From the NCBI RefSeq assembly GCF_044324785.1, contig NZ_CP172127.1: a DNA stretch of 64,000 nucleotides, one strand, 5' to 3'. Of this stretch, positions 4,072 to 36,367 are shown piece after piece. The notes under the pieces were generated by a model. That model did not search any database. It saw only the letters and a program-made list of their open reading frames with translations, and had not been told where the DNA came from. Source of the stretch: Escherichia coli. GTDB taxonomy: Bacteria; Pseudomonadota; Gammaproteobacteria; Enterobacterales; Enterobacteriaceae. The translations under genes were made by a program, and so were the position numbers. Within the stretch, counting starts at the first letter, position 1, and each line of letters starts with the position of its first letter.

Positions 4072-5355
4072 TTACCGTTTGTAATCGATGGCTTCTGGCT
4101 GCTCCAGATATACGGTGGTTTGTGCTGGTTGGGTGCTGGCAATCACCTTACCGCCACGTACCGAATAGCGCACCGGAACCTGACGGCGCAGCGCATCAAA
4201 CCCATTTTCAGCCGGCAGGATAATCAGGTTGGCGCTGTTTCCGGCGGCAATGCCGTAATCCTGCAAATTCAACGTCCTGGCGCTATGGTGGGTGATTAAA
4301 TTCAGGCCGTCGTTAATCTGCCCGTAGCCCATCAACTGACAAACATGCAGCCCCATATGCAGCACTTGCAGCATATTCGCCGTTCCCAGTGGATACCACG
4401 GATCGAAGACATCATCGTGACCAAAGCAGACGTTAATGCCGGACTCCAGCATCTCTTTAACGCGCGTGATGCCGCGACGTTTTGGATAGGTATCGAAACG
4501 TCCTTGCAGATGAATATTGACCAGCGGGTTGGCGACAAAGTTAATACCGGACATTTTCAGCAAACGGAACAAGCGTGAGGTATACGCCCCGTTATAGGAG
4601 TGCATTGCCGTAGTGTGGCTAGCGGTGACTCGCGCGCCCATGCCTTCACGGTGCGCCAGGGCAGCAACGGTTTCGACAAAGCGCGACTGCTCGTCATCGA
4701 TCTCATCACAGTGAACGTCGATGAGACGGTCGTATTTTTGCGCCAGGGCGAAGGTTTTATGCAGCGACTCCACGCCGTATTCGCGGGTAAATTCAAAATG
4801 CGGAATCGCCCCCACTACGTCTGCCCCTAAGCGTAACGCCTCTTCCAGCAACGCTTCACCGTTGGGATACGACAAAATCCCTTCCTGCGGGAAGGCGACG
4901 ATTTGCAGATCAATCCACGGCGCGACTTCCTGCTTCACTTCCAGCATTGCTTTCAGCGCGGTCAGCGTTGCATCCGAAACATCGACATGGGTACGTACAT
5001 GCTGAATGCCGTTGGCAATCTGCCATTTCAGCGTTTGCCATGCGCGTTGTTTCACATCGTCATGGGTTAATAACGCTTTGCGCTCGGCCCAGCGTTCAAT
5101 GCCTTCGAACAGCGTGCCGGACTGATTCCAGTTCGGTTGTCCGGCGGTTTGCGTGGTGTCCAGGTGAATATGCGGCTCCACAAACGGCGGTAAAACTAAA
5201 CCTTGTTCGGCATCCAGGCTGTTTTCTGTTACGGGCATCACACCAGATTGCGTATCAATGGCGCTGATTTTTCCGTCGTGAAGATGAATCTGCCACAGCC
5301 CCTCTTTGCCGGGTAACCGGGCGTTAATAATTGTTTGTAAAGCGTTATTCGACAC
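4072..5355 (-). CDS. codA: cytosine deaminase
   Basis: ORF 4072..5370 matches CodA; start set to GTG at 5355 ([16 protein letters not shown]...), the known non-ATG start as I recall it. Confidence 0.94.
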
Positions 5356-11465: not shown

Positions 11466-12356
11466 TTATTTCACCTGGCTACGGGCAAACAGGTCGTCGA
11501 GCTTCTCTTCGTACTGGTAGTAGTTGATGCTTTCGTACAGCTCGTTGCGGGTCTGCATGGTGTCGATGACGCTTTTCTGCGTCCCTTCCTGACGCAGGAC
11601 GTTGTAGACATGCTCAGCGGCGCGGTTCATGGCGCGGAACGCTGAAAGTGGGTACAGCGCCATTGCGACATGGGCGCTGCGTAATTCGTCGGTGGTAAAC
11701 AGCGGTGTTGCGCCAAATTCGGTGATGTTGGCGAGGATCGGCACCTGCACCGCATCGGCAAACTGGCGGTACATGGCGAGTTCGGTAATCGCCTCCGGGA
11801 ACAACATCTCGGCACCCGCTTCAACATAGGCCTGCGCACGCTCAATCGCCGCATCCAGCCCCTCTACCGCCAGCGCATCGGTGCGCGCCATGATCACAAA
11901 ATCAGGATCGGTTTTCGCATCCACCGCCGCGCGGATCCGATCCACCATTTCTTCTTTCGAGACGATCGCTTTATTCGGGCGATGACCGCAACGTTTCGCA
12001 CCAACCTGATCTTCAATATGCAATCCTGCCGCACCGGCTTTAATCATCGATTTCACGGTGCGCGCCACGTTAAAAGCAGAAGAACCAAAACCGATATCCG
12101 CATCCACCAGCAGCGGCAGCGAACAAACGTCGGTGATACGGCGAATATCTGTCAGCACGTCATCAAGAGTAGAAATACCGAGATCGGGCAGCCCCAGCGA
12201 CCCTGCCGCCACGCCACCGCCGGAGAGATAAATTGCCTGATATCCGGCACGCTGCGCCAACAGCGCATGGTTGGCGTTGATGGTGCCGACAATCTGTAAT
12301 GGATTTTCTTTAGTCAGTGCAGCGCGAAACGCTTTACCTGGAGAGTGTAGAGACAT
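11466..12356 (-). CDS. prpB: 2-methylisocitrate lyase
   Basis: 296-aa PEP-mutase/isocitrate-lyase family ORF matching PrpB. Confidence 0.95.
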
Positions 12357-12403
12357 AGCCCATCCTTTGTTATCAACTTGTTATTTGCGTTGATAAACAC
12401 AAA

Positions 12404-12418
12404 GCAAGGGGTGTGCCA
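12404..12418 (-). promoter_or_regulatory. sigma-54 (-24/-12) promoter of prpBCDE: TGGCAC-N5-TTGC
   Basis: Reverse complement of 12404..12418 reads TGGCACACCCCTTGC, a near-consensus RpoN promoter about 50 bp upstream of prpB; PrpR is a sigma-54 enhancer-binding protein. Confidence 0.65.
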
Positions 12419-12493
12419 CAATTGCCTTAATAAAATTAAATGTTTAATTTCAATTTGTTAGCAATATAGTCATGAAGTAATCCGCAAATATGC

Positions 12494-22930: not shown

Positions 22931-23341
22931 CTACACAACGTCAATAAGGGCATATTCTTCAAAGATAACGTCCATTTCGGGTGAATAGCATCCTTCTGCC
23001 TGGAAAAAACGACGGTGTTCATTACGCCAATATTCAAGACTGAGGTCACCTTCACCTTCCTTACGGGCAAGCTCCGCGGTGACATCAGAAAAGCGCAGTA
23101 AATGCAGGCCAATCACTCTGATAACACAGACAGGCTCACCACGGCTATTTTCTACAATCTTATACTCACCAATCATCGGAAATGCGTTGTCTTCAATACA
23201 TCCCGCCAGCGAACCACAGGAAGCTGTTTTAACACCTGTCGCAATCAACGTTGCGAGGTGATCGGCCAACGCTGCTGAATCGCCAAAAGTACAAAAGGAA
23301 GCATGGGGATATTTTTGTGAGATTTTTTCTTTTATGGTCAT
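22931..23341 (-). CDS. ASCH/PUA-like domain protein
   Basis: ORF 22931..23374 (GTG) or from ATG 23341; GVKTAS motif typical of ASCH domains; no clear Shine-Dalgarno at either start. Confidence 0.55.
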   Translation of the reverse strand: MTIKEKISQKYPHASFCTFGDSAALADHLATLIATGVKTASCGSLAGCIEDNAFPMIGEYKIVENSRGEPVCVIRVIGLHLLRFSDVTAELARKEGEGDLSLEYWRNEHRRFFQAEGCYSPEMDVIFEEYALIDVV

Positions 23342-23637
23342 GAGAATATTTTCGCGATTACGGAAAAAAATCACATCTTAATTACTGTAGATAACCATCA
23401 GCAAGAGGATCATTGGTTTTCCTATGTTTAATCTTTTTTATCCGAAGCAGGTCACATTTATGGCTTGATAAATACCTTTGTTAAAACTCACTTTTGTGTA
23501 TTTCTCTCAAATAATCCCCTGGAAATTATGCCGGGAGATTATAAAGTTCAGGATCATTCATTAACAAACCATTCCCGCCCCACTCCCTGGGGCTTAAATC
23601 TCTTACGATTCACCGTTGCAGACATATCAAATGCGCA

Positions 23638-25020
23638 TCAACCTGCCACACTCCCCCACACCAGTTGCCCTTTATGGAACGTCGCCGTTCTCGGCGAGAT
23701 ACGCGCCACCGCCTCGGCGGAACAGGAGGCGTCCACCAGCACAAAGCTGGCGTCATCCTGCGCTTTAGGCCACACACGCTCGCCTTTTTCGTTGAGCGGC
23801 AATACATCGCCAGTGGCTAAAAACAGCGAACGGGAGAGGTTCTGTTCGTTAGGACGAATATAGAGCTGCGCGTAGAGATTGGCTTTTTCCAGCATGTCGC
23901 CCAGGCCGTAAGGCGACCAGTGGTCGATAACGCTGTCGGTGCCGGTCATCACTTTTACGCCTTTGTCGTGCAGTTGTTTAAGCGGCATATGTAGCGTGCC
24001 GATCGGCACCGTCGAGGCGATAGAAATTTGCTGCGCCGCCATCCGGTGCGCCAGTTCATCTACCTGTTGCTCATTGAGCGTTGCCAACGCAAAGGCGTGA
24101 CTGATGGTCAGCTTGCCCTTCAGTTGCGGCGTTTTCTCCACTGTTTCAACCATATAATTGATGGCCGCCACGCCTGCCGGAGTGGTTTCATGCAGGTGAA
24201 TATCGACGCCTTTGTCGTAGTCCAGCGCAATCTGGAACATGGTGTCGAGGGATTTTTCCATCGCGCCATCAACACTGGTTGGGTCCAGCCCGCCGACGTA
24301 ATGCGCCCCTGCCTGCATCGCTTCGCGCATTAAGGGTTCCGATTTCGACAGCAGCAAACCGTGCTGCGGGAAGGCGACGATTTCACACTCGAAGCCCGCC
24401 TGACGTCGCGCCAGCACCGCCTGCAAATTTTGCAGATTTTTCAGGCCGGAAACCGGTTCGATATTGCAGTGGCTGCGGGCAATGGTAGTGCCTTTCGACT
24501 GCAATAAATCGATCAGTTTTTCCGCCCTTTCCTGAGTGTACGGTTGCAACTCCGGCAGCATTTTCTGCTCGAGTTTGATCATGTCCTGGATGGTGGTGCC
24601 TGCCGGGCGATTGAGCGAGCGCCACGGCCCGCCGTAAAAGGTTTTGTCGAGATGAATATGCATGTCGCGGGTGGTGGGCAGCATCAGCTTACCGCCAGCG
24701 TCATAGTGCGGCAGCGTGGCGTCCGGATGCTGCTTGTTCTCGCGCAGGGCAACAATTTTGCCGTTCTGAATCTCTACGGTCTGGTGCGCCGTGCGGGTCT
24801 GTACCGCCACACCGTTTTCGTAGTCAAAACCGGTTTCCAGCAGCACGTTGTCGAGATAGTAGTGCGGGTCAGTGATTTTCATGGTGTTATTCGCGTCGCA
24901 GTTTAGGGTGCCAGAGACTGCCGCATGGGCGAGCGGCACAGAGGTACCAAACAGCGCGGCGGCGGTGACCATCTTACCGCTCTGGCTCAGAAACTCACGG
25001 CGGCTATTGTTTTTTTTCAT
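23638..25020 (-). CDS. yahJ: Tat-signal amidohydrolase (cytosine-deaminase-like)
   Basis: 460-aa ORF; N-terminal twin-arginine motif SRREFL followed by a hydrophobic stretch ending AHAAV; metal-dependent amidohydrolase fold; matches YahJ length. Confidence 0.88.
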   Translation of the reverse strand: MKKNNSRREFLSQSGKMVTAAALFGTSVPLAHAAVSGTLNCDANNTMKITDPHYYLDNVLLETGFDYENGVAVQTRTAHQTVEIQNGKIVALRENKQHPDATLPHYDAGGKLMLPTTRDMHIHLDKTFYGGPWRSLNRPAGTTIQDMIKLEQKMLPELQPYTQERAEKLIDLLQSKGTTIARSHCNIEPVSGLKNLQNLQAVLARRQAGFECEIVAFPQHGLLLSKSEPLMREAMQAGAHYVGGLDPTSVDGAMEKSLDTMFQIALDYDKGVDIHLHETTPAGVAAINYMVETVEKTPQLKGKLTISHAFALATLNEQQVDELAHRMAAQQISIASTVPIGTLHMPLKQLHDKGVKVMTGTDSVIDHWSPYGLGDMLEKANLYAQLYIRPNEQNLSRSLFLATGDVLPLNEKGERVWPKAQDDASFVLVDASCSAEAVARISPRTATFHKGQLVWGSVAG

Positions 25021-25029
25021 CTTACGTCC

Positions 25030-25980
25030 TTACGTTTTAATAATATGTGTGCCTGTTTCGCCGCGCAGCGCCGCAGGCAGGCATTCCGGCGTGGTGATAA
25101 TCACTTCTTTGCCGCCCTGCTCCAGGAACGTCAGGCTGGCGATGATTTTTGGCAACATGCTGCCAGGCGGGAAATGCCCTTCCTGCATATAGCGGGTCAT
25201 GGTGGCAATATCCACCCGATCCAGCGCCTGCTGCTGCGGCTTGCCAAAGTGAATACACACTTTTTCGACGCCGGTGGTGATCACCAGAATGTCGGCGTGA
25301 ATTTCACGGGCCAATAGCGCGGTAGAGAGATCTTTGTCGATAACCGCGTCCACGCTTTGGTAATCCCCCGCTTCACTGCACACCACCGGAATTCCACCGC
25401 CGCCCGCGCCAATCACCACAAAACCTTGTTGGATCAGCGCCTTAATGGCAGGTGCTTCGACAATACGTTTCGGTTCCGGCGAGGCGACCACGCGGCGATA
25501 GCCCCGTCCGGCATCTTCAACAAAACGCCAGTCAGGATTTGCCTTTTGTAATTCGTCACGCTGGCTGTCACTAAAGAATGCGCCGATGGGCTTGGTGGGA
25601 TGAGCAAATCCCGGATCGTTTTTATCCACTTCCACCTGAGTCACCACGGTGACGGCTTTTTTCTCGCCGTGACGCGCCAGCCGGTTGTTCAGCGCCTGTT
25701 GGATCAGATAGCCAATGCCGCCTTGCGTATCCGCCACACAGTTCGCCAGCGGCGTTAAGGGCAGCCCTTCGCGCTCGTGGGCAATCTCCGCGCGGCGTAA
25801 ATCCAAACCGACCTGCGGCCCGTTGCCGTGGGTCAGCACAATGTCGTAATCGGAAGCCAGCATTTCCAGCACCGTATCGGCCACGGCTTTCACCGCCTCC
25901 GCCTGATGCTCAATCGACTGGCTGGCGTTATCTTTGATAATGCTGTTGCCACCAATGGCAACGACCACAAGTTCTTTCAT
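25030..25980 (-). CDS. yahI: carbamate kinase-like protein
   Basis: 316-aa amino-acid-kinase-family ORF matching YahI; 9-nt gap to yahJ. Confidence 0.88.
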   Translation of the reverse strand: MKELVVVAIGGNSIIKDNASQSIEHQAEAVKAVADTVLEMLASDYDIVLTHGNGPQVGLDLRRAEIAHEREGLPLTPLANCVADTQGGIGYLIQQALNNRLARHGEKKAVTVVTQVEVDKNDPGFAHPTKPIGAFFSDSQRDELQKANPDWRFVEDAGRGYRRVVASPEPKRIVEAPAIKALIQQGFVVIGAGGGGIPVVCSEAGDYQSVDAVIDKDLSTALLAREIHADILVITTGVEKVCIHFGKPQQQALDRVDIATMTRYMQEGHFPPGSMLPKIIASLTFLEQGGKEVIITTPECLPAALRGETGTHIIKT

Positions 25981-26030
25981 GTTGTTATGTCCGCTACAGA
26001 GGGTGATGGGGTTATGACCAACGCCAGACT

Positions 26031-26202
26031 GCCTGATGCGCTACGCTTATCAGGCCTAGAATTCTCGTGCCATTCGTAGGCCGGATAAGGCGTTCACGCC
26101 GCATCCGGCAATGGTGACAAATGCCTGATGCGCTACGCTTATCAGGCCTACAGATTCTCGCGCCACTCGTAGGCCGGATAAGGCGTTCACGCCGCATCCG
26201 GC
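26031..26202. repeat. REP cluster (BIME): two tandem copies of an inverted REP pair
   Basis: gcctgatgcgctacgcttatcaggcctac and gtaggccggataaggcgttcacgccgcatccggca each occur twice (26031..26110 and 26123..26202). Confidence 0.88.
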
Positions 26203-26225
26203 AAAGACAACGCGCACTTTGCAGG

Positions 26226-27503
26226 TCAGACGCCGTAACGTTCGCACCAGCCAAGAATGGCTTTTTCGAAGCAGGCGAATGGTGGATGCACAATGCCCGC
26301 GCCAATCATGCCGATGCCCGCATCTTTATGAGCGATGGCGGTGTTGATCACTGGCAGAATGCCGCTACTGCCCACGCGGGTGATGTCGATTGCCGACGGC
26401 ACGCCCATAAAACCGAGCAGCGGAATGGTGACGTTGGGGTTTTCGCCGAGAGTGATTTCGCGCATCTGACGGGAGAAATCGATAGCTTCTTCCACCGTAC
26501 CGCCCACCAGCGCGACGATTGCAGGCGCGGTCGCCATAGCAAATCCGCCAATACCGTAGGTTTCGGTGATGGCACTGTCGCCAATATCCAATCCAGAATC
26601 TTCCGGCTTATAACCGGCAAACATCGGGCCGATCACCTGCTGCGCCGGACCGGAGAAGTAGTCGCTGCTGGCGACAAACTCAAACACTTCGCGCTGTTGC
26701 TCGACGGAATAGCCCGCCTGAATAATCCCCGGCGTCAGCGCCTGAATCAGCAACGTAGTCCCGGCGTTATTGCGGTTATGGCATTCATCGCCCATATGCA
26801 GCGCCTGCGCCAGCATCAAGCGCAGATCGATCTCGCCGATAATTTTCATTGCGTCACGCAGCATTGGCCCCTGCACATCGCGCATCCAGTTGAGGCGGTC
26901 AATCACGCTCTGGTCGTTAGCGCCCATACGCAAAATCTTCGCCATCTGCTCGCTCATGTTGGTATAAGCGATGTTGCCGTAGGTTTTGTTTTTTACGATG
27001 TGCATAAACATCGAGGCCGAGGTAACACCCGCCATCGATCCCACACAGTCGTGTTCGTGGCACGGCGAGAAGGTGATCTCCCCGGAGGCCGCCAGGTCAG
27101 CCGCCTCGTCGAGATCTTTCGCCAGTCCTTCGAACACCAGCGCTCCGGTGACCGCGCCTTTCATCGCGCCGCACATTTTTTCCCAGGTGATCGGCGGCCC
27201 GGCGTGAAGAATGGTTTTCGGCGTCATGCCCGGCACCACGTTAATCGCCTGATCAAAACCAATCAGCACCGGATGTGACTGAATAATGCGCTCCAGAGCC
27301 TGCTGATTAGCGGCGGCGATTTTGTCTGCCAGCGGCGAATCGGCAATGTTATCCAGCGCCTGCACCACCTGCATATTGCCCTGCCCCGGCGGCGTCCAGT
27401 CGAGTTGGGTCACTTCTACATGCTGCTTTTTCAGGTCATCGCTAAACATGGCGATGCCGACGTTAATAACGTTCAACGGTTGGCTAAACAGTGACTGGCT
27501 CAT
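26226..27503 (-). CDS. yahG: DUF1116 protein (YlbE-like)
   Basis: 425-aa ORF homologous in type to YlbE; start overlaps yahF stop by 1 nt. Confidence 0.85.
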   Translation of the reverse strand: MSQSLFSQPLNVINVGIAMFSDDLKKQHVEVTQLDWTPPGQGNMQVVQALDNIADSPLADKIAAANQQALERIIQSHPVLIGFDQAINVVPGMTPKTILHAGPPITWEKMCGAMKGAVTGALVFEGLAKDLDEAADLAASGEITFSPCHEHDCVGSMAGVTSASMFMHIVKNKTYGNIAYTNMSEQMAKILRMGANDQSVIDRLNWMRDVQGPMLRDAMKIIGEIDLRLMLAQALHMGDECHNRNNAGTTLLIQALTPGIIQAGYSVEQQREVFEFVASSDYFSGPAQQVIGPMFAGYKPEDSGLDIGDSAITETYGIGGFAMATAPAIVALVGGTVEEAIDFSRQMREITLGENPNVTIPLLGFMGVPSAIDITRVGSSGILPVINTAIAHKDAGIGMIGAGIVHPPFACFEKAILGWCERYGV

Positions 27504-29050
27504 CAGGCTTCCTCCCCTTTGCAGATAAATTCACGCGCCAGCAATCCGGTATTGGTGCTACTGCTGGCCAGAATCACTCCGCCATCAAGCAGCATCTGGC
27601 TTTGTTGTTCTAACGATGGCGTATCGAGATCGGTACCCAGAACATAGGCGAGAATGATCAACTCGCGCCCTTCGGCAGCGGCGATCGCTTTCGCCTCTTT
27701 GATCGCCTCGATGGTGGAACCGACCGGATCTTCATGCGATCCAAACCCGAGCACAAAATCCATCACGATCACCGCCACTTCTGGATCGCGCGCTTCTTCG
27801 ATCAACCGGCTGATACGGTTGGTGGGGTCAATCATTGGATGCGGCTTGCCGTTGGTGAAGTCGTCATCGCCAAAGTCGAGGAAGGTGTGTTTGATGCTGC
27901 GGTTGATATCTTGCAGGCGGAATTCAGGATCGGGCTGAATGTTGCTGTAGACATCGCCATGTTTTTCCATCACCGCGAACATGGTTTCGTCACACAGCGT
28001 ACCGCCGCAGAACAGGCCACGAATGTATTTCTGTTGCGGCTTCAGGCGAGCGCGCACGTCAGCAATCAATGGCTGGTTCAGGGTATGCAGATCGAGATGT
28101 TCCTGTTTCACGCCGGAGAGCATCACCGCTTTCAGCGCCGCTTCTTTGCTGCCGCGGGCAAACTTTAGCCCCTGCTCATCCACTGGCGTTTCGCCACGAC
28201 CGAGGAAGCAGACCACCACCGGCTTGCGGCAGGCGCGTGCGCGTTCCAGCACTTTGCGGGCCACCGCAGGCGCAGGCGGTTTGGAGATAAGCACAATAAT
28301 TTCAGTTTGCGGATCGTTTTCCAGCATCCCGATGGCGTCGAGCATCATCAGGCCGCCGATTTTCTCGCTCAGGTCGCGCCCGCCGGTGCCGATCAGTTGC
28401 GAAACGCCGCCGCCAAATTCATGGATACGGACGCTCAGCTCCTGGCTACCGGTGCCGGATGCGCCAACAATGCCGATGTTGCCGCGACGCACGGCGTTAC
28501 CAAAGCAGAGCGCCGCGCCGTTGATAATCGCCGTACCGCAGTCTGGCCCCATCATCAGCAGCCCTTTTTCGTGGGCCAACTGTTTGAGCGCCAGTTCATC
28601 TTCAACTGAGACGTTATCGGAAAACAGCATCACGTTAAGATCGTTTTGCAGCGCCTGACGCGCTTCGCGAGCGGCAAACAGACCGTTGACCGAAATCACC
28701 GCCAGGTTACTTTCCGGGATATGCTTTTTGGCGCTGGCAATAGTGGCATAGCGTGCTTCATGTGAACCAGTTTGAGCTTTGCTGTTGAACAGTTCTTCAA
28801 TCTCCACCAGCAACTGCTCGTTGTCCGCACCCGCTTTGCCGTTGATGACAATCATCAGGTCACCGTTTTTCGCCTGCTCCAGTTCCGGCGTCAGCAGTCC
28901 TAAATTCTTCAGCACGCCTTTGTTCATTTCGGTCGCCATCGCCACAAATGCCTGCTCGACGCCGTCGAGTTTATTTGCACGCGTGGAGATAGACATCAGC
29001 GAGACAGAATCAAAATAGGTATTCGGTTTAATGACTATTTTAACTGACAT
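27503..29050 (-). CDS. yahF: FdrA-like CoA-binding protein (succinyl-CoA-ligase-alpha-like fold)
   Basis: 515-aa ORF matching YahF length; overlaps yahE by 11 nt. Confidence 0.88.
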   Translation of the reverse strand: MSVKIVIKPNTYFDSVSLMSISTRANKLDGVEQAFVAMATEMNKGVLKNLGLLTPELEQAKNGDLMIVINGKAGADNEQLLVEIEELFNSKAQTGSHEARYATIASAKKHIPESNLAVISVNGLFAAREARQALQNDLNVMLFSDNVSVEDELALKQLAHEKGLLMMGPDCGTAIINGAALCFGNAVRRGNIGIVGASGTGSQELSVRIHEFGGGVSQLIGTGGRDLSEKIGGLMMLDAIGMLENDPQTEIIVLISKPPAPAVARKVLERARACRKPVVVCFLGRGETPVDEQGLKFARGSKEAALKAVMLSGVKQEHLDLHTLNQPLIADVRARLKPQQKYIRGLFCGGTLCDETMFAVMEKHGDVYSNIQPDPEFRLQDINRSIKHTFLDFGDDDFTNGKPHPMIDPTNRISRLIEEARDPEVAVIVMDFVLGFGSHEDPVGSTIEAIKEAKAIAAAEGRELIILAYVLGTDLDTPSLEQQSQMLLDGGVILASSSTNTGLLAREFICKGEEA

Positions 29051-29903
29051 AATTCCCTCCGTAGGTTTGGCTCAGCGCACAACCATCGGCCATGCCATAC
29101 AGCATGTCGCAGCCGGAACTGGAGCCAATATGTTTAATTTTTTCTATTGCCTGAGTTGCGTTCCCAGGGATGTCATAAATAATGTTATGAATAAAACGAT
29201 GAATATTTTCCCGGCAGCGTTGTTGTAATGCGGCTTCCAGCGTTATGGCACTTAATAACGTGGTATTATTTCTGCCGCGTTGCAGACCGAGATAAAATTC
29301 CTCTTTGTATTTTTCCGCCGGATGTCCGGAAATAAATAAAATAAGCGCCAGACCTGTTAAATAATCGTCAGCTGATGGCGTAAGGCCAATCCCTAAGCCC
29401 ATCATACTGGCGACTGCTGAGGCGATATTTTGTTTATCGTTTACGGCCTGAATAACTGCCCGTCGTTTAATATGTAATTCTTTATTTAACGCCTGATAAA
29501 ACGGATTATCGCCGCAATAATTAAACAGGGTTTCATTTTCCCCCAGGTGCTGATGAATAATGTCATGCCACTGTTGCCAGGCGATAAGGTGAAAATTCAC
29601 AGCGGTCATTTGCAAGGTTGGGGACAGCCAACGCCGACAACGACTCATCTCTATATGAAGATGTTGACCAACCGTAATGCCTTGATCGTCAAACTGAACC
29701 TTATCACCATGCCGGAACAGACCATCAAAGTGAGTGAGTGCCAACCGACAACTGTTTGGCGCATTGTCATACTCTTCACAAAGCAGCGTCAGCAACTGCT
29801 GGCGGGCCGGAAGTGCGATATTTACCGCTCTGGCAAAGACCTGTTCAACCTGTCCTTGCCCCCGCTGTGCCAGAAAATCCGCATCCGCAGTTAGCGCCCA
29901 CAC
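29040..29903 (-). CDS. yahE: DUF2877 protein (YlbF-like)
   Basis: 287-aa ORF matching YahE length and position. Confidence 0.85.
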   Translation of the reverse strand: MWALTADADFLAQRGQGQVEQVFARAVNIALPARQQLLTLLCEEYDNAPNSCRLALTHFDGLFRHGDKVQFDDQGITVGQHLHIEMSRCRRWLSPTLQMTAVNFHLIAWQQWHDIIHQHLGENETLFNYCGDNPFYQALNKELHIKRRAVIQAVNDKQNIASAVASMMGLGIGLTPSADDYLTGLALILFISGHPAEKYKEEFYLGLQRGRNNTTLLSAITLEAALQQRCRENIHRFIHNIIYDIPGNATQAIEKIKHIGSSSGCDMLYGMADGCALSQTYGGNYVS

Positions 29904-29942
29904 ACACCGTCTTTCTGGTGTGTCGATAACAAGCCTCCCGGT

Positions 29943-30548
29943 TTATGCACCTGCGGCAATCAGCAACTGCGCAATCTCTTCAAAGCCTCGTTCCCGCGCC
30001 AGTTCCAGCGGCGTTTTGCCATATTTATCCGTCATGTGCGGGCTGGCACCGTGTTCAAGCAATAACTGGACAATCGCCTGCTGTTTAATCCCGCCATCAT
30101 TAAGCACAATTGCTTCCAGTAGCGGCGTCCAGCCAACATAGTTGGTCTGGTTAACGTTAATCTCCGTATGCGCCAAAAGCTCTTTTACAATACTTAAATG
30201 GCCTTTTTCACAGGCAGGCGTCAGGCCGACACCGCCAAAACGGGTGACGCAATTAAGATCGGGTTTAGCCGGTAAAATAATCCGTAACAGGGTTAAATCG
30301 CCGGTCAGGCAGCTAATTAAAAAAGGATTTGAACATATTTGATCTTGCTTATTAATATCCGCTCCGGCATCAATTAATGCCTGAACGCAAGCATATTGCT
30401 GATATAAACTTGCCAGCGTAATTGCCGTTTTTCCCTGACGATCGCAGGTATTAATATCGACACCCAGCGCAAGGCAGGTTTTTACTTTATCGATATCACC
30501 CTGTTGCGCAGCCAATAAATAGTCGGCAGGTAGATTTTTTATAGTCAT
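29943..30548 (-). CDS. yahD: ankyrin-repeat protein
   Basis: 201-aa ORF with repeated ankyrin-type segments (…GADINKQD…, …LLEHGASPHM…). Confidence 0.85.
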   Translation of the reverse strand: MTIKNLPADYLLAAQQGDIDKVKTCLALGVDINTCDRQGKTAITLASLYQQYACVQALIDAGADINKQDQICSNPFLISCLTGDLTLLRIILPAKPDLNCVTRFGGVGLTPACEKGHLSIVKELLAHTEINVNQTNYVGWTPLLEAIVLNDGGIKQQAIVQLLLEHGASPHMTDKYGKTPLELARERGFEEIAQLLIAAGA

Positions 30549-30805
30549 TCACATTCCCCTGGTTTTTGTGGCTGTTTTCGATGAATTGAGAATAGCAACG
30601 ATAATCTGATAAAAGAACCCGCTTAAATTTAATTCGCCGTATTTCGCCTTTTTGTTGAATGATGTTCAACAATCTTTTCGCAGTGTGCGGTAGTGCAATA
30701 TTTGTTTCTTTGACCCGATACCCTTTCACTCAATCAGGTTTTATTTCTCTATAGTCTGCACATGTAAGAGTAGCTTTCGTCCATGTCTAACCAGAGGGGA
30801 ACAAG

Positions 30806-31303
30806 ATGAACGGACTCACGGCAACGGGTGTCACCGTCGGTATTTGTGCAGGGCTTTGGCAGTTAGTGTCTTCACATGTTGGGCTCTCTCAGGGATGGGA
30901 ATTATTAGGAACCATTGGCTTCGTCGCCTTTTGCAGTTTTTATGCCGCAGGCGGCGGTAAATCGGGGTTTATCAGAAGTCTGGCGGTTAATTATTCCGGG
31001 ATGGTGTGGGCGTTTTTCGCCGCGCTGGCTGCCGGCTGGCTGGCCTCGGTGAGTGGATTGTCCACGTTCTGGGCGAGCGTGATTATGACTGTACCCTTCT
31101 CGGCGGTGGTGGTCTGGCAAGGACGTTTCGGTTTATTGTCTTTTATTCCCGGAGGCTTTCTCGGCATGACGCTATTTTTTGCCAGCGGGATGAACTGGAC
31201 AGTGACATTACTGGGTTTTCTGGCGGGTAACTGCGTGGGGATAATTTCAGAATATGGCGGACAAAAATTAAGCGAAGCGACGACTAAACGCGACGGGTAT
31301 TAA
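30806..31303 (+). CDS. yahC: small inner-membrane protein
   Basis: 165-aa hydrophobic ORF at the expected position. Confidence 0.8.
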   Translation: MNGLTATGVTVGICAGLWQLVSSHVGLSQGWELLGTIGFVAFCSFYAAGGGKSGFIRSLAVNYSGMVWAFFAALAAGWLASVSGLSTFWASVIMTVPFSAVVVWQGRFGLLSFIPGGFLGMTLFFASGMNWTVTLLGFLAGNCVGIISEYGGQKLSEATTKRDGY

Positions 31304-31394
31304 AAGTTATTCAAAAATGATTATCTATCTTTAACCGATACCTCTACAGTCATGGCTGGAGAAATTCATATTCGATAATGGCGGGAATGGTTTA

Positions 31395-32327
31395 ATGAAC
31401 TCAATTTTTACCGAAGAGAATCTGTTGGCATTTACTACCGCTGCGCGTTTTGGCAGTTTCAGTAAAGCCGCAGAAGAGTTGGGTTTAACCACTTCCGCCA
31501 TTAGCTACACCATCAAGCGAATGGAAACAGGGCTGGATGTGGTGCTGTTCACTCGCAGTACCCGAAGCATTGAGTTAACGGAGTCCGGGCGTTATTTTTT
31601 CCGCAAAGCTACCGACCTGCTGAATGATTTTCACGCCATCAAACGCAGCATCGATACTATTTCGCAGGGTATAGAAGCACGGGTGCGCATTTGTATTAAC
31701 CAACTGCTTTATACGCCCAAACACACCGCACGCTTATTACAGGTACTGAAAAAGCAGTTTCCAACCTGCCAGATTACCGTGACGACCGAAGTGTATAACG
31801 GCGTCTGGGATGCGATTATTAATAATCAGGCGAATATTGCTATCGGCGCGCCCGACACACTGCTGGACGGCGGCGGCATTGATTACACGGAGATTGGCGC
31901 AATTCGCTGGGCTTTTGCTATCGCCCCGGATCACCCATTAGCCTTTGTGCCGGAGCCGATCGCCGAAAGCCAACTGCGTCTCTATCCTAATATCATGGTG
32001 GAGGACACCGCGCATACGATTAATAAAAAAGTGGGCTGGTTGCTGCATGGGCAGGAGTCGATTCTGGTGCCAGATTTCAACACCAAATGTCAGTGCCAGA
32101 TTTTAGGTGAAGGAATTGGTTTTTTGCCGGATTACATGGTCCGTGAGGCGATGGCGCAATCCCTGCTGGTTACCCGACAAATCCATAATCCGCGCCAGGA
32201 TTCACGCATGTTACTCGCAACTCAGCATTCTGCTACGGGTCAGGTGACGCAGTGGATTAAAAAACAATTTTCGCCAAATGGCATATTAACGGGGATCTAT
32301 CAGGATTTACTGCATCGGGAGAATTAA
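31395..32327 (+). CDS. yahB: LysR-family transcriptional regulator
   Basis: 310-aa ORF with N-terminal HTH (FSKAAEELGLTTSAISYTIKRME). Confidence 0.85.
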   Translation: MNSIFTEENLLAFTTAARFGSFSKAAEELGLTTSAISYTIKRMETGLDVVLFTRSTRSIELTESGRYFFRKATDLLNDFHAIKRSIDTISQGIEARVRICINQLLYTPKHTARLLQVLKKQFPTCQITVTTEVYNGVWDAIINNQANIAIGAPDTLLDGGGIDYTEIGAIRWAFAIAPDHPLAFVPEPIAESQLRLYPNIMVEDTAHTINKKVGWLLHGQESILVPDFNTKCQCQILGEGIGFLPDYMVREAMAQSLLVTRQIHNPRQDSRMLLATQHSATGQVTQWIKKQFSPNGILTGIYQDLLHREN

Positions 32328-32368
32328 TCGCTGCCAACCTCCCGATGCGCTGTGAATAGCGGTTTACA

Positions 32369-33457
32369 TCAACCACCAGCTTTCATTACCCATTCAGAAA
32401 CAAATTTATTACCTGGTACTGGCGGAGAGTACAAATAGCCCTGCAAAAAGTGAACGCCTTTACCGATCATTAAATCCGCCTGCTCCTGGGTTTCTACCCC
32501 TTCCGCCACGATACTCAGACCAGGCTTACGCGCCAGTTCGACAATATTGTCCACAATATGACCGGATATTTCGTCCACGCTCGCCATTTGCACAAACGAC
32601 TTATCGATCTTAATAAAATCGACCGGAAACGCCTGCAAATAACGATAGGTCGCATAACCCGTACCAAAATCATCCAGCGCAAAGGTAATGTTGTGCTGAT
32701 GAAGGCTGTCAAATATCGCTCTGGCTTCTGGCGTTACCGGAATAGGGTTACGTTCCGTTAGCTCGAGAACCAGTTTGATTTTATCGTTTCCTAATTTCTT
32801 GACCAGGTTCAGGCATTCTTTTTCAAATCCCGCGGCCAAAAAACAACCCGCCGAGACGTTGATGCCAATATGGAAATTATCCGGCAGCAAATGTTTTACC
32901 GGCATCAGAATATCCGCAGTCTGTTTCATCAACTGGCGAGTCATTATGACGATAAGACCAGATGACTCCGCCAGAGGAATAAACTGATCCGGTGGGATAA
33001 TTCCCGTTTGTGGATGTTCCCAGCGGACAAGCACCTCACAGCCCGTCAGTACCCCAGTCTGCGCGCAGAAAACCGGTTGGATCCACGGTTTAAATTCATG
33101 GTTTTCCAACGCCAGACTGATGGCTTCAGGCGTGACGATATGGTGATAGTGATTATCATTAATATATTTGTGACTATTATTACCCGTGGCGGATATGATC
33201 TCCGGATTGTACTGAAAGAAAATATCCCGCCAGAAAGTAATATCGCTCTGAATCCCCAGTTTCTCAAAGAGCTGTTTCTTTTGATGTGAAATGGTCTTTG
33301 CACTGCGATTTCTGTACTGTGATATTTCTGTTACAGACATTCCCTGCATCAGCAGCTTGAGTAGCAGTCGTTCTTTCTCGGATACGCTACCAGGCAATGA
33401 CAAATGAACCGTTGTACCGAACTCTTGCAGAAAAACACGAAAATCACATGAATTCAT
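32369..33457 (-). CDS. pdeL: c-di-GMP phosphodiesterase with LuxR-type HTH and EAL domain
   Basis: ORF 32369..33463 trimmed to ATG 33457 (MNSCDFRVFLQEF...); EAL motif region ELTE present; matches YahA/PdeL. Confidence 0.9.
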   Translation of the reverse strand: MNSCDFRVFLQEFGTTVHLSLPGSVSEKERLLLKLLMQGMSVTEISQYRNRSAKTISHQKKQLFEKLGIQSDITFWRDIFFQYNPEIISATGNNSHKYINDNHYHHIVTPEAISLALENHEFKPWIQPVFCAQTGVLTGCEVLVRWEHPQTGIIPPDQFIPLAESSGLIVIMTRQLMKQTADILMPVKHLLPDNFHIGINVSAGCFLAAGFEKECLNLVKKLGNDKIKLVLELTERNPIPVTPEARAIFDSLHQHNITFALDDFGTGYATYRYLQAFPVDFIKIDKSFVQMASVDEISGHIVDNIVELARKPGLSIVAEGVETQEQADLMIGKGVHFLQGYLYSPPVPGNKFVSEWVMKAGG

Positions 33458-34333
33458 GAACACACCTTTATCTTTTATCGCTGTTCAGTATGAGTGATTA
33501 CCTGTGGATTCCTGAGCACACATAAGGGGTAACCATAAACATCAGCGATGCCATACGCATAACATCCCACATCACTATCAAAAAGATTATCTTTACCTCT
33601 GATGCTCGCTCAAAAACAGTTACGCTAAATACCTTAAAAAGGTAATCACAAGTCAAACTCAGGAGATAATCACGCAAGAATGCAATATTAAAATTCAGAT
33701 ACTCATTTTTGGTAATAAAGAAGTAGTTGGACTATTTCAATATTTATAATTTCCCACTACGTATTGACGCCCATTCATGAGTAAAGGCGCATTATATGAA
33801 TTTAACAATCCAGATCAACTGAAAATACCTCAACCTCATAAACACATAGCGTCAACATTCAATGACATAATGAGTAAAGATGTTGGTTATGCATACACGT
33901 CATTACTCTATGCCTATCCCTTAACAACCTGCTTTTTAAGGCTGAATCCATTCAGCAATAGATAGCCAACATTATAACAATGACAATAAAAACAATATTT
34001 AAAACAATCAATAAAATATCAGACACAGACAATTAAACCTTAAACAACAAACAGTTACATTGATTTTAGTTGATTTGCGCTACGCGTTTCCCATGAATAA
34101 AGCGTCATTTCAAATTAGCACCAATATTTACATTAAATAAGACTAAGCTTATTGAACATTCACAACAGTCCAAGCGTAGGTTTTGGGCTTCAATAGTTCT
34201 TTTCTTTTTTATTATCTGTTGCCTGGCAATCATCAATCGATACTAAGGGCTTAACTGTACACAGATATAACGTATCAAGAGGTAAGAGAAACCGCGCCAT
34301 ATGCAGACATGGCGCGGTTTTATGCAATAACAA

Positions 34334-36367
34334 TCACGCGTCCGGGAACATCACGCTATGGCCCGGCGCTTCACGATGGAGATGGATAAAGTTAAGGTGC
34401 CGCTCGTACTGGTCGAGAATATCGGTGATCACCTGCTCTTTGCTGTAGTCCATCAGGTCGTTGCCCTGGCTGCCTTCTAACAGGAAAGTTTCCAGCCGGT
34501 AGTAGGTCGATTTACCGCTACGTGCGCGGTAGGTAAAGCCCGGCACCGAATATTGCTGCGGCCAAATCTGATAGACAAAGTTTTGCTCTTCGCCCATATG
34601 CACCAACAAATCCAGATGCCCCAACTGTTGTCCCTCTTCCGGCGGCAGGCTTTTTAGCTCCACGTACGCGCCGCGCAACCGCAGCTCCTGCGCCACTTCT
34701 TCCATTGCCGGGTAACAGACCGTCTCCATCATCTGTTTAGTGTAACGCGTGCCCGGATAATTCATCAGGCGCGAGAGACGTTTTTTCCAGCTCAGGCGAT
34801 CCTGAAGCCCCAGCGGTCGCGGCGCGGTATCACGGTTGGCACTTTCACGGCGGTAATCTTCTACCTTCAGAGATTTATACAACCCCGCCATCACGAAGAA
34901 AATCACAAAGCTGAACGGCAGCCCCATGATTACCGTGGTGTTTTGCAGCGCGGATATCCCGTTGGTCATCAGCATGCCAAGCGTCAGCAGACCAATCGCC
35001 ACCGACCAGAAGACGCGCAGCCAGCCGGGGGCGTCGCTGTTGATATCTTTAAGCTGCGAGGTGAAATTCCCCAGCACCAGCGCGCCGGAGTCCGCCGAGG
35101 TCACATAAAACAGCAGGCCAGTAATGGTGGCGACGGAGGCGCTAAAGGTAAACGCCGGATACTGCGCCAGCAGGCTGTAGAAGCCGCGCTCCGGATGGAC
35201 CATCGCTTCCTCGGCAAATGCCGCGCCGCCGTGGATGATTTCATACAGCGCGCTATTGCCGAACACCGAGAGCCATAACAGCGTGAAGGTAAACGGAATA
35301 ATCAACGTGCCCAGCACGAACTGGCGAATGGTACGCCCACGCGAGATACGCGCCAGGAACAGGCCGACAAACGGCGACCATGCCACCCACCATGCCCAGA
35401 AGAAGAGCGTCCAGTTATTCATCCACTCAACCGGACGGTCGAAGGCAAAACTGTTGAGCGTCATTCCCATAAAGCGATTCACATAGTCGCCAACGTTCAG
35501 CACCAGCGCATTAAGCAGGAACGAGGTGTCGCCCATAAACAGCACGAACAGGATCAGCCCCAGCGCCAGCGCAACGTTGAGTTCCGATAACACACGAATG
35601 CCCTTATCGACACCGGAGGTGACAGAGATCGTTGCGATGATCACCGACAAGGCGATCAGTGCCGCTTTTGCCGCCATCGAATCAGGAATATCAAACAGTA
35701 CGCTCAAGCCATAGTTAAGCTGCACCACACCGATACCGAGCGTAGTGGCAATACCGAAGATGGTGCCGATCACTGCTGCAATATCCACTGAGTGACCTAT
35801 CGGCCCGTTAATCCGTTTACCGAAGATCGGGTACAGCGCTGAGCGGATGGTGAGCGGCAAATTATAACGATAGCTAAAGTATCCGAGCGCCATGCCCATC
35901 AGCGCATACATCGACCAGCCGGTTAAGCCGTAGTGAAACAGCGTCCAGACCATCGCCTGACGCGCGGCCTCAATCGTCTGACCCGCGCCTTCCGGCGGCT
36001 GCATATACTGCGTTACCGGTTCGGCTACGGAGAAGAACATCAGGTCGATACCGATCCCGGCAGCAAACAGCATCGCCGCCCAACTCAGCAGACTGAACTC
36101 CGGTTTGGATTGTTCTGGCCCGAGCTTCACCGAACCAAAACGCGAACAAGCGATACAGACCACAAAGACAATATAGAGCGTTGCCGCCAGCAGATAGTAC
36201 CAACCGAAGGTTTTAGAGACCCAGTCCAGCGTGCGTCCAATCCACAGGGCCGAGAAGTCGCGAAACAGGATCGTTGTCAGGGAAAACAACAAAATCAGTC
36301 CGGCGGAAGTGTAAAACACCACCGGATTGATTTTGTCCTTTTCCCTGCTGTGTGAAAGGTCTGTCAT
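34334..36367 (-). CDS. betT: choline transporter (BCCT family)
   Basis: 677-aa polytopic ORF matching BetT. Confidence 0.95.
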   Translation of the reverse strand: MTDLSHSREKDKINPVVFYTSAGLILLFSLTTILFRDFSALWIGRTLDWVSKTFGWYYLLAATLYIVFVVCIACSRFGSVKLGPEQSKPEFSLLSWAAMLFAAGIGIDLMFFSVAEPVTQYMQPPEGAGQTIEAARQAMVWTLFHYGLTGWSMYALMGMALGYFSYRYNLPLTIRSALYPIFGKRINGPIGHSVDIAAVIGTIFGIATTLGIGVVQLNYGLSVLFDIPDSMAAKAALIALSVIIATISVTSGVDKGIRVLSELNVALALGLILFVLFMGDTSFLLNALVLNVGDYVNRFMGMTLNSFAFDRPVEWMNNWTLFFWAWWVAWSPFVGLFLARISRGRTIRQFVLGTLIIPFTFTLLWLSVFGNSALYEIIHGGAAFAEEAMVHPERGFYSLLAQYPAFTFSASVATITGLLFYVTSADSGALVLGNFTSQLKDINSDAPGWLRVFWSVAIGLLTLGMLMTNGISALQNTTVIMGLPFSFVIFFVMAGLYKSLKVEDYRRESANRDTAPRPLGLQDRLSWKKRLSRLMNYPGTRYTKQMMETVCYPAMEEVAQELRLRGAYVELKSLPPEEGQQLGHLDLLVHMGEEQNFVYQIWPQQYSVPGFTYRARSGKSTYYRLETFLLEGSQGNDLMDYSKEQVITDILDQYERHLNFIHLHREAPGHSVMFPDA

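Follow-up and report, generated by a model that had tools for sequence, protein, structure and literature searches.

A paralogue of the allantoin-regulon carbamoyltransferase gene set in the yah region of Escherichia coli: a candidate ATP-yielding module for a nucleobase-like ureide, with an internal deletion in yahG

Gene content of the yah region

The 64,000-nucleotide stretch of contig NZ_CP172127.1 analyzed here (the window) is a segment of an Escherichia coli chromosome, and its longest matches among 5,426 complete E. coli genomes were about 98% identical. It contains the yah region in reverse orientation, and the subject of this study is the gene string yahDEFG and yahIJ within it. On the minus strand, the order is yahD, yahE, yahF, yahG, a spacer of repetitive extragenic palindromic sequences and bacterial interspersed mosaic elements (REP/BIME), yahI, yahJ, an open reading frame (ORF) with an ASCH domain, a four-gene ATP-binding cassette (ABC) transporter, and yahK; yahC and yahB are divergent and lie upstream of yahD.

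The first gene of the string, yahD (29943..30548, minus strand), encodes an ankyrin-repeat protein, recognized by its ankyrin matches, that is a conserved accessory component. It is followed on the same strand by yahE (29040..29903), encoding an AllH-like subunit (former DUF2877), yahF (27503..29050), encoding an AllF/FdrA-like subunit, and yahG (26226..27503), encoding an AllG-like subunit (former DUF1116) with an in-frame internal deletion. The yahE and yahF genes overlap by 11 nt, and the stop codon of yahF overlaps the start of yahG by 1 nt. Beyond the REP/BIME spacer (the "yahH" region, 25981..26225) are yahI (25030..25980, minus strand), a carbamate kinase paralogue, and yahJ (23638..25020, minus strand), which encodes an amidohydrolase with a twin-arginine translocation (Tat) signal that resembles AtzC and cytosine deaminase. 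On the plus strand, yahB (31395..32327) encodes a LysR-type protein, the probable regulator of the module, and yahC (30806..31303) encodes a small DUF1097 membrane protein, according to RefSeq, whose membership in the module is uncertain.

Every named yah gene except yahG had its RefSeq length, and these other genes were all full length. The first-pass annotation had placed the locus at 22931–30548; this interval does enclose yah genes, but its low end (22931–23374) is the ASCH-domain ORF and not a yah gene. It had also missed the ankyrin partner YahD, the permease of the orthologous clusters, and the yahG deletion, all of which are described below. Promoter and terminator scans of positions 22500–31500 gave counts that were not above those of shuffled sequence; therefore, no operon boundaries are claimed.

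Relationship of YahE, YahF, YahG, and YahI to AllFGHK

Profile hidden Markov model (HMM) searches matched YahE to Pfam AllH (E 3.6e-28) and YahG to Pfam AllG (E 6e-53). YahF passed the cut-off of the NCBIfam FdrA model (489 bits; cut-off 433), and YahI passed that of the carbamate kinase subfamily NF009007 (646 bits; cut-off 266) and fell slightly under that of the arcC equivalog TIGR00746 (345.4 bits; cut-off 358.25). BLASTP against the K-12 All proteins gave identities of 38% for YahF and AllF (E 1e-101), 45% for the intact form of YahG and AllG (E 8e-120), 25% for YahE and AllH (E 1e-10), and 38% for YahI and AllK (E 1e-57), matches much stronger than chance would give. Among PDB entries, YahF matched 3DMY (FdrA; E 8.9e-82) and YahG matched 3CLQ (E 2.5e-195), a structural-genomics entry ("uncharacterized protein") that is itself a protein of the YahG clade. 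YahF consists of HMA_AllF_N, CoA_binding, and Ligase_CoA domains, and its alignment with AllF revealed a common loop, G(K/R)PHPMIDPT, which is a candidate functional site. The HMM and BLASTP matches bear out the description of YahE, YahF, and YahG as YlbF-, FdrA-, and YlbE-like proteins accompanied by a carbamate kinase, which the first-pass annotation had given, and the four-gene set that it had likened to fdrA-ylbE-ylbF-ybcF is present in the window. The resemblance to the AllFGH set is genuine, and the present Pfam and RefSeq names already reflect it.

The three-subunit architecture of AllFGH was found at the locus, with the AllF/FdrA-like, AllG (PF06545), and AllH (PF11392) proteins encoded by separate genes, and yahI, on the same strand and 245 nt downstream of yahG, forms one gene string with them. 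The AllG domain is not intact in the window copy of yahG. With only 25%–45% identity to AllF, AllG, and AllH, the proteins do not qualify as their orthologues; they belong to a separate yah clade that is 62%–99% identical internally across phyla, and E. coli K-12 carries both the yah and the all sets. No allantoin-pathway genes occur beside yah in the window, where the neighbors are yahB, yahC, the ASCH-domain ORF, the sugar-type ABC cassette, and yahK. As judged from the sequences, the yah module is a paralogue, and not an orthologue, of allFGHK.

CanOE (2012) proposed the allantoin-regulon genes for oxamate carbamoyltransferase. This role, named in the first-pass annotation, has since been shown by experiment: purified AllF-AllG-AllH is an oxamic transcarbamylase (oxalurate and phosphate give oxamate and carbamoyl phosphate) for which all three genes are required, and AllFGH shares an operon with a carbamate kinase (Kim & Kim, 2024; PMC11326118). 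YbcF (AllK) is the catabolic carbamate kinase (Kim & Kim, 2022; PMC9843812); no published carbamate kinase assay of YahI was found. The yah paralogues are mentioned in none of the AllFGH, AllK, and CanOE papers; yahC, E, G, H, I, and J were listed in an uncharacterized gene cluster of E. coli K-12 in a 2024 survey (PMC11551758). In Table 3 of the AllFGH study, an allFGH triple mutant supplied with only allFG formed 7%, and with only allGH 16%, of the oxamate of the wild type (PMC11326118). It is speculation that this partial recovery reflects weak cross-complementation by the chromosomal paralogues YahE or YahF.

Orthologous clusters in other bacteria

The loci examined were six with precomputed Pfam annotation and eighty from species-representative genomes. 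Conservation was counted over 66 loci with a YahG identity of 60% or more and flanks of 6 kb or longer on both sides. YahG orthologues were 84%–99% identical in most Enterobacterales, about 76% identical in Shimwellia, and 62%–76% identical in Bacillales, Actinomycetes, Burkholderiales, Bosea, Vibrio, and Shewanella. The usual gene order was ankyrin protein, AllH-like, AllF-like, AllG-like, permease, and carbamate kinase, often followed by a deaminase. An AllF-like gene was present in all 66 loci and an AllH-like gene in at least 58; carbamate kinase was encoded in 58, an ankyrin or ankyrin-tetratricopeptide repeat (TPR) protein in 56, a permease in 47, and a deaminase in 36. The yah set is a catabolic module that is widespread and strongly conserved, and yahB and yahDEFG-(REP)-yahIJ are its Escherichia version.

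Two types of regulator recurred, a YahB-like LysR protein in 22 loci and PucR in 17, the latter being the one used in Firmicute clusters. The best NCBIfam matches of YahB were AllS (268 bits; cut-off 372) and PunR (239 bits), both below cut-off; AllS and PunR are purine-related activators. The deaminase position was occupied by either of two non-homologous proteins: in Firmicutes and some Actinomycetes, a CDA-fold protein nearest to the guanine deaminase of Bacillus subtilis (1WKQ, E 1.5e-31), and in Proteobacteria, a YahJ-type amidohydrolase. Five Bacillales loci also carried an M20 enzyme of the allantoate-amidohydrolase/carbamoylase family, and one orthologous locus carried CynX/CynR-like genes; as clues to the substrate, these extra genes are suggestive rather than decisive.

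An Enterococcus sp. locus contained PucR, the E, F, and G genes, and genes for an ankyrin-TPR protein, an NCS1 permease, and a CDA deaminase, flanked by fab genes and efp; neither a carbamate kinase gene (within 8 kb) nor allantoin-pathway genes were found there. A riboswitch search of seven Firmicute yah-type loci and of positions 15000–35000 of the window returned only an unrelated c-di-GMP riboswitch and matches to the REP-derived naRNA4. The former is a c-di-GMP-I riboswitch of Paenibacillus fonticola (positions 4461–4557 of locus L008; 73.9 bits) that lies upstream of CheW and chemoreceptor genes adjoining the yah-type cluster, and it is probably unrelated to the module.

The permease of the module and its loss in Escherichia

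Three types of permease were found in the orthologous clusters. The first, an NCS1 protein, had allantoin permease as its nearest match (435 bits, under the cut-off), and the second comprises CodB-like NCS1 and NCS2 proteins. The third and commonest is a membrane protein of 517–520 aa (positions 11540–13093 of locus L005, with orthologues in L004, L006, and L007, all proteobacterial clusters) that had no sequence match in Pfam, NCBIfam, or PDB. A fold search with its high-confidence structural model (predicted local distance difference test, pLDDT, 89.6) retrieved the 7+7 fold common to SVCT1, AZG2, UraA, and SLC26. This UraA/SLC26-type fold covers nucleobase transporters and also anion transporters. 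About 2,200 relatives were counted among 50%-identity representatives, and the protein is an undescribed transporter family.

Among Enterobacterales, the permease was missing only in Escherichia, Pseudocitrobacter, and one Kluyvera. In the window, the REP/BIME spacer sits at the position where the orthologous clusters encode it, and a tblastn search of the whole window detected no trace of the permease. The REP/BIME repeats can be read directly from the sequence of the yahG–yahI spacer, which is 245 nt long here versus 421 nt in K-12, and yahH has been described as filled with REP sites (PMC11551758). Rfam naRNA4 (RF02564, a REP-derived nucleoid-associated RNA) matched positions 26079–26148 with 78 bits (gathering score 59.5), and a second stretch was noted beside it at 26172–26227; the naRNA4 match is most likely simply a BIME. 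Escherichia has lost the dedicated permease, and a REP/BIME element fills the gap between yahG and yahI.

The yahC gene occurred only in four loci without permease (Escherichia albertii, two Pseudocitrobacter, and Kluyvera; L012–L015) and in none of the 82 other loci. YahC might be a replacement transporter. Given the close relationship of the four loci, one rearrangement in a common ancestor might equally account for the pattern.

YahJ and its export signal

YahJ matched the amidohydrolase model NF005312 (716 bits; cut-off 447) and reached 70–103 bits against cytosine deaminase models, below their cut-offs of 403–483. Its best PDB matches were the AtzC-type 6NBO (E 3.9e-44), then AtzC, and then CodA. 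The metal-binding motifs DMHIHLD, HLHE, SHAF, and GTDSV are invariant in the orthologues. At the N-terminus, YahJ has SRREFL, a hydrophobic stretch, and AHA, and this Tat signal is kept in E. coli, Atlantibacter, and Morganella as SRREFL or GRRAFL followed by AHA, AYA, or APA. YahJ has been listed among the Tat substrates with its function unassigned, and a yahJ deletion mutant was mildly outcompeted in mice (competitive index 0.70, p = 0.02; PMC7549933). Since the Tat signal is conserved, deamination is predicted to be periplasmic and to precede uptake, which contradicts the sequence of uptake first and hydrolysis afterward that the first-pass annotation had proposed.

An internal deletion in yahG

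YahG has 425 aa in this strain versus 472 aa in the reference, owing to an in-frame deletion of 141 bp (47 aa). The deletion lies between the two copies, CCGGCCCG and CCGGTCCG, of an imperfect direct repeat of 8 bp, of which the CCGGTCCG copy is retained at the junction (26646..26653, minus strand). The junction was defined by aligning the window with strain 2014C-3075 and with N3, a near-identical strain whose yahG is intact and to which the 181 compared flanking bases are identical. The junction did not occur in any of the 5,426 complete E. coli genomes, and every best hit spanned the extra 141 bp. The identical 425-aa YahG was present on four other public contigs, which rules out an assembly artefact; because of this recurrence, we consider the deletion to be a real but rare allele.

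The deletion splits the Pfam AllG match, from which model positions 142–185 of 215 are missing. At least 90% conservation across the clade, AllG included, was found at 19 of the 47 deleted positions, and in the structural model the deleted stretch corresponds to one helix and three strands (mean pLDDT 64). The deletion probably inactivates YahG, and hence the transferase, in this strain.

The adjacent ABC cassette and the ASCH-domain ORF

The four-gene ABC cassette (18244..22680, minus strand) does adjoin the module, as the first-pass annotation had stated, but the functional link that it drew is not sustained. The binding protein matches only the general sugar-binding family Peripla_BP_4 and is of the CUT2 sugar type, with 137 bits against RhaS (cut-off 342) and 111 bits against LsrB (cut-off 384). 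In RefSeq, this protein (21694–22680) is named "autoinducer 2 ABC transporter substrate-binding protein," which is unsupported at the LsrB cut-off. Neither the binding protein nor the ASCH gene was found near any of the 66 orthologous yah-type loci. Orthologous cassettes stand alone in Atlantibacter and Yersinia, where their binding proteins are 74%–79% identical and the neighbors are flagellar and fimbrial genes or pdu and cob genes. Within E. coli, the cassette and the ASCH gene were complete in 2,213 of the 5,426 genomes (41%), whereas yahG was present in 5,065. We therefore rejected the sugar-type cassette as the transporter of the module on conservation, binding-protein type, and distribution. 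The ASCH-domain ORF (22931..23341, minus strand; Pfam ASCH, E 8.4e-22) was likewise judged to be outside the module.

Strain N3 is 100% identical to the window over the cassette, and K-12 lacks both the cassette and the ASCH gene. The genomes without the cassette still match two short pieces of the cassette/ASCH region (18244–23374), about 205 nt in total and annotated as a hypothetical protein, which suggests that genomes of the K-12 type have lost the cassette, and not that the cassette was inserted into the others. Strain ERL06-2497 (NZ_CP032797.1, L094; bovine) has an internal stop in the ABC ATPase and frameshifts in yahC and yahB, and its yahD–J genes are annotated as intact. This strain had appeared to bear the cassette without yahDEFG; the match had merely broken in the REP region, and yahD–G are present, so that in this respect the strain offers no independent evidence. 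Different parts of the region are decaying in different lineages.

Selection and history of the locus

The ratio of nonsynonymous to synonymous substitution rates (dN/dS) against E. albertii was 0.03–0.06 for yahD, F, G, I, and J, with yahD at 0.055, and 0.17 for yahE. When another E. coli was compared as well as E. albertii, the values were 0.03–0.06 for yahF, G, I, and J, 0.06–0.13 for yahD, and 0.17–0.28 for yahE. The yah genes are under purifying selection in Escherichia. The GC content is about 0.56–0.57 from yahJ to yahF (23500–29050) and about 0.47–0.48 over yahE and yahD (29050–30550), and dS between E. coli and Pseudocitrobacter was 0.22–0.35 for yahF, G, I, and J versus 1.4–3.9 for yahB, C, D, and E. 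The GC step together with the contrast in dS suggests a recent horizontal exchange of yahF–J between the E. coli and Pseudocitrobacter lineages.

Proposed function and alternative explanations

We think it reasonably likely that the locus represents, in Escherichia, a module that gains ATP by releasing carbamoyl phosphate from a ureide, for which a nucleobase-like compound is the candidate, that the ABC cassette and the ASCH gene are unrelated to it, and that the YahG copy of this strain is probably dead. YahE, YahF, and YahG would form a three-subunit carbamoyltransferase of the AllFGH type, probably with the ankyrin protein YahD. By analogy with AllFGH, this enzyme would cleave the acyl-ureide bond of the nucleobase-like compound with phosphate to give carbamoyl phosphate, and YahI, as a member of the carbamate kinase family, would convert carbamoyl phosphate and ADP into ATP, NH3, and CO2. 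The gene context points to a nucleobase-like N-heterocycle or its ureide as the substrate, and the deaminase would widen the range to the amino form: YahJ, exported by the Tat system, is predicted to deaminate the amino or imino form in the periplasm before uptake. For uptake, most other bacteria would use the nucleobase-type or UraA-fold permease encoded between yahG and the kinase gene. The formation of carbamoyl phosphate from a ureide with recovery of ATP, as the first-pass annotation had envisaged, stays the best reading of the locus.

Several observations weigh against this proposal. No ring-opening hydrolase for the step to the acyl-ureide is conserved in the module, and the carbamate kinase gene is missing from eight of the 66 loci, the Enterococcus locus included. 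SLC26 anion transporters share the modeled fold of the 517–520 aa permease, so that a nucleobase is only a candidate cargo. In Escherichia, selection maintains the genes although the dedicated permease is gone, and another transporter would be needed. As to the yahG deletion, its effect is deduced from conservation, and the YahG model is of moderate quality.

The proposal that the adjacent ABC transporter imports the substrate, which YahJ then hydrolyzes and YahEFG phosphorolyzes in the cytoplasm, draws on the position of the cassette, next to the module and on the same strand, and on the lack of the orthologous permease in Escherichia, for which a neighboring transporter could in principle substitute. 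It is very improbable, given the sugar-type binding protein, the absence of the cassette from all 66 orthologous clusters, and its solitary occurrence in unrelated contexts in Atlantibacter and Yersinia. Moreover, at least 2850 E. coli genomes have yahG without the cassette, AT-rich spacers of about 250–260 nt and a differing GC content part the cassette from yahJ, the Tat signal would export YahJ, and in ERL06-2497 the ABC ATPase is a pseudogene next to an intact yahD–J. Still harder to credit is that YahF is an acyl-CoA synthetase of the succinyl-CoA synthetase type and that the cluster activates an organic acid. The RefSeq product name "acyl-CoA synthetase FdrA," the homology with the succinyl-CoA synthetase alpha subunit (E 3e-17), and the CoA_binding and Ligase_CoA domains speak for this idea, but the scores against the alpha-subunit models were 71.5 and 64.5 bits (cut-offs 336 and 353), and in a single pairwise alignment the phosphohistidine loop GHAGA of 2YV2 fell opposite a gap in YahF. 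The closest characterized relative, AllF, is a carbamoyltransferase subunit, and a carbamate kinase gene accompanies the module in most loci.

It is unlikely, though not negligibly so, that YahEFG is a second, isofunctional oxamate carbamoyltransferase that acts on oxalurate as AllFGH does and differs in regulation. The two large subunits share 38%–45% identity with the All proteins, the regulator is AllS-like, and Firmicute clusters have PucR, the allantoin-permease-like NCS1 protein, and, in five loci, the M20 enzyme; the first description of oxamate transcarbamylase activity was from streptococci/enterococci, and the Enterococcus locus is of the yah type. However, E. coli strains with deletions of allF, allG, or allFGH make no oxamate (PMC11326118), so the chromosomal yah genes apparently cannot stand in for the all genes in the conditions of that study. 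The yah clade also has an ankyrin partner and a permease of its own as well as a deaminase, all three superfluous to the allantoin route, and allantoin-pathway genes are found next to yah neither in the window nor in the Enterococcus locus. We regard it as distinctly unlikely that the Escherichia cluster is a functionless, decaying remnant stranded by the loss of its permease. The REP/BIME element in place of the permease, the continued listing of the genes in an uncharacterized y-ome cluster, the yahG deletion in this strain, and the frameshifted yahB and yahC in another would all fit decay, but they are set against the low dN/dS values, the presence of yahG in 5065 of 5426 genomes, the full length of all other yah genes in the window, and the mild attenuation of the yahJ deletion mutant in the mouse competition.

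A bolder and improbable extension of the carbamoyl phosphate-releasing module is a new kind of ring or acyl-urea cleavage, in which the AllFGH-type enzyme and its ankyrin partner attack the acyl-ureide bond of an imported nucleobase-like heterocycle with phosphate. This reading is tenable because no ring-opening hydrolase is conserved and the permeases are of nucleobase type. Candidate substrates are xanthine, uracil, a hydantoin (for example, creatinine-derived N-methylhydantoin), parabanate, or a triazine-type compound. The amino form may sometimes first be deaminated by YahJ or by the guanine-deaminase-like enzyme, and carbamoyl phosphate or an N-substituted carbamoyl phosphate may then yield ATP via YahI. 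If true, this would offer a route that yields ATP, in place of ring opening by hydrolysis or at the expense of ATP.

The AllFGH type of enzyme has been recognized only since 2024, with a single known substrate. The yah set, as the carbamoyl phosphate-releasing module that we propose, is a separate and unusually conserved clade (YahG is 62%–76% identical between E. coli and Firmicutes or Actinomycetes), and its context of nucleobase-type permeases, deaminases, and purine-type regulators gives a short, testable list of substrates. Since Citrobacter and Enterobacter carry the complete cluster, they are better test organisms than E. coli. At the curated cut-offs, there is no support for two of the names given in RefSeq, "acyl-CoA synthetase FdrA" and "autoinducer 2 ABC transporter."

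Comparison with known systems

The closest known system is allFGHK, with which yah has in common the AllF/FdrA, AllG, and AllH families, a carbamate kinase, and the neighborhood of an AllS-like LysR gene. The two differ in gene order, which is H-like, F, G, and kinase in yah versus F, G, H, and K in all, and YahG has about 60 extra N-terminal residues. The yah module has an ankyrin partner and, in other taxa, its own permease and often a deaminase, and, unlike the all genes, it lies apart from the allantoin genes.

The arginine deiminase (ArcB/ArcC), agmatine deiminase, and YgeW/YqeA systems resemble the proposed route in that carbamoyl phosphorolysis is followed by ATP formation by carbamate kinase. 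Their transferases, however, are single-gene proteins of the ATCase/OTCase fold, to which the three-subunit AllFGH type of yah is unrelated.

For YahJ, the comparison is with AtzC and CodA. It has in common with them the amidohydrolase deaminase fold, with E values of 3.9e-44 to 1e-29 for AtzC-type proteins and 1e-16 to 1e-19 for CodA, but it has a Tat signal and would be periplasmic.

The Firmicute modules recall the puc system of Bacillus in having a PucR-family regulator, a PucI-like NCS1 permease, and a GuaD-like CDA-fold deaminase. These resemblances are at the family level, below the equivalog cut-offs, and the core enzyme of the modules is of the AllFGH type, an enzyme that, to our knowledge, has not been placed in the puc regulon of B. 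subtilis.

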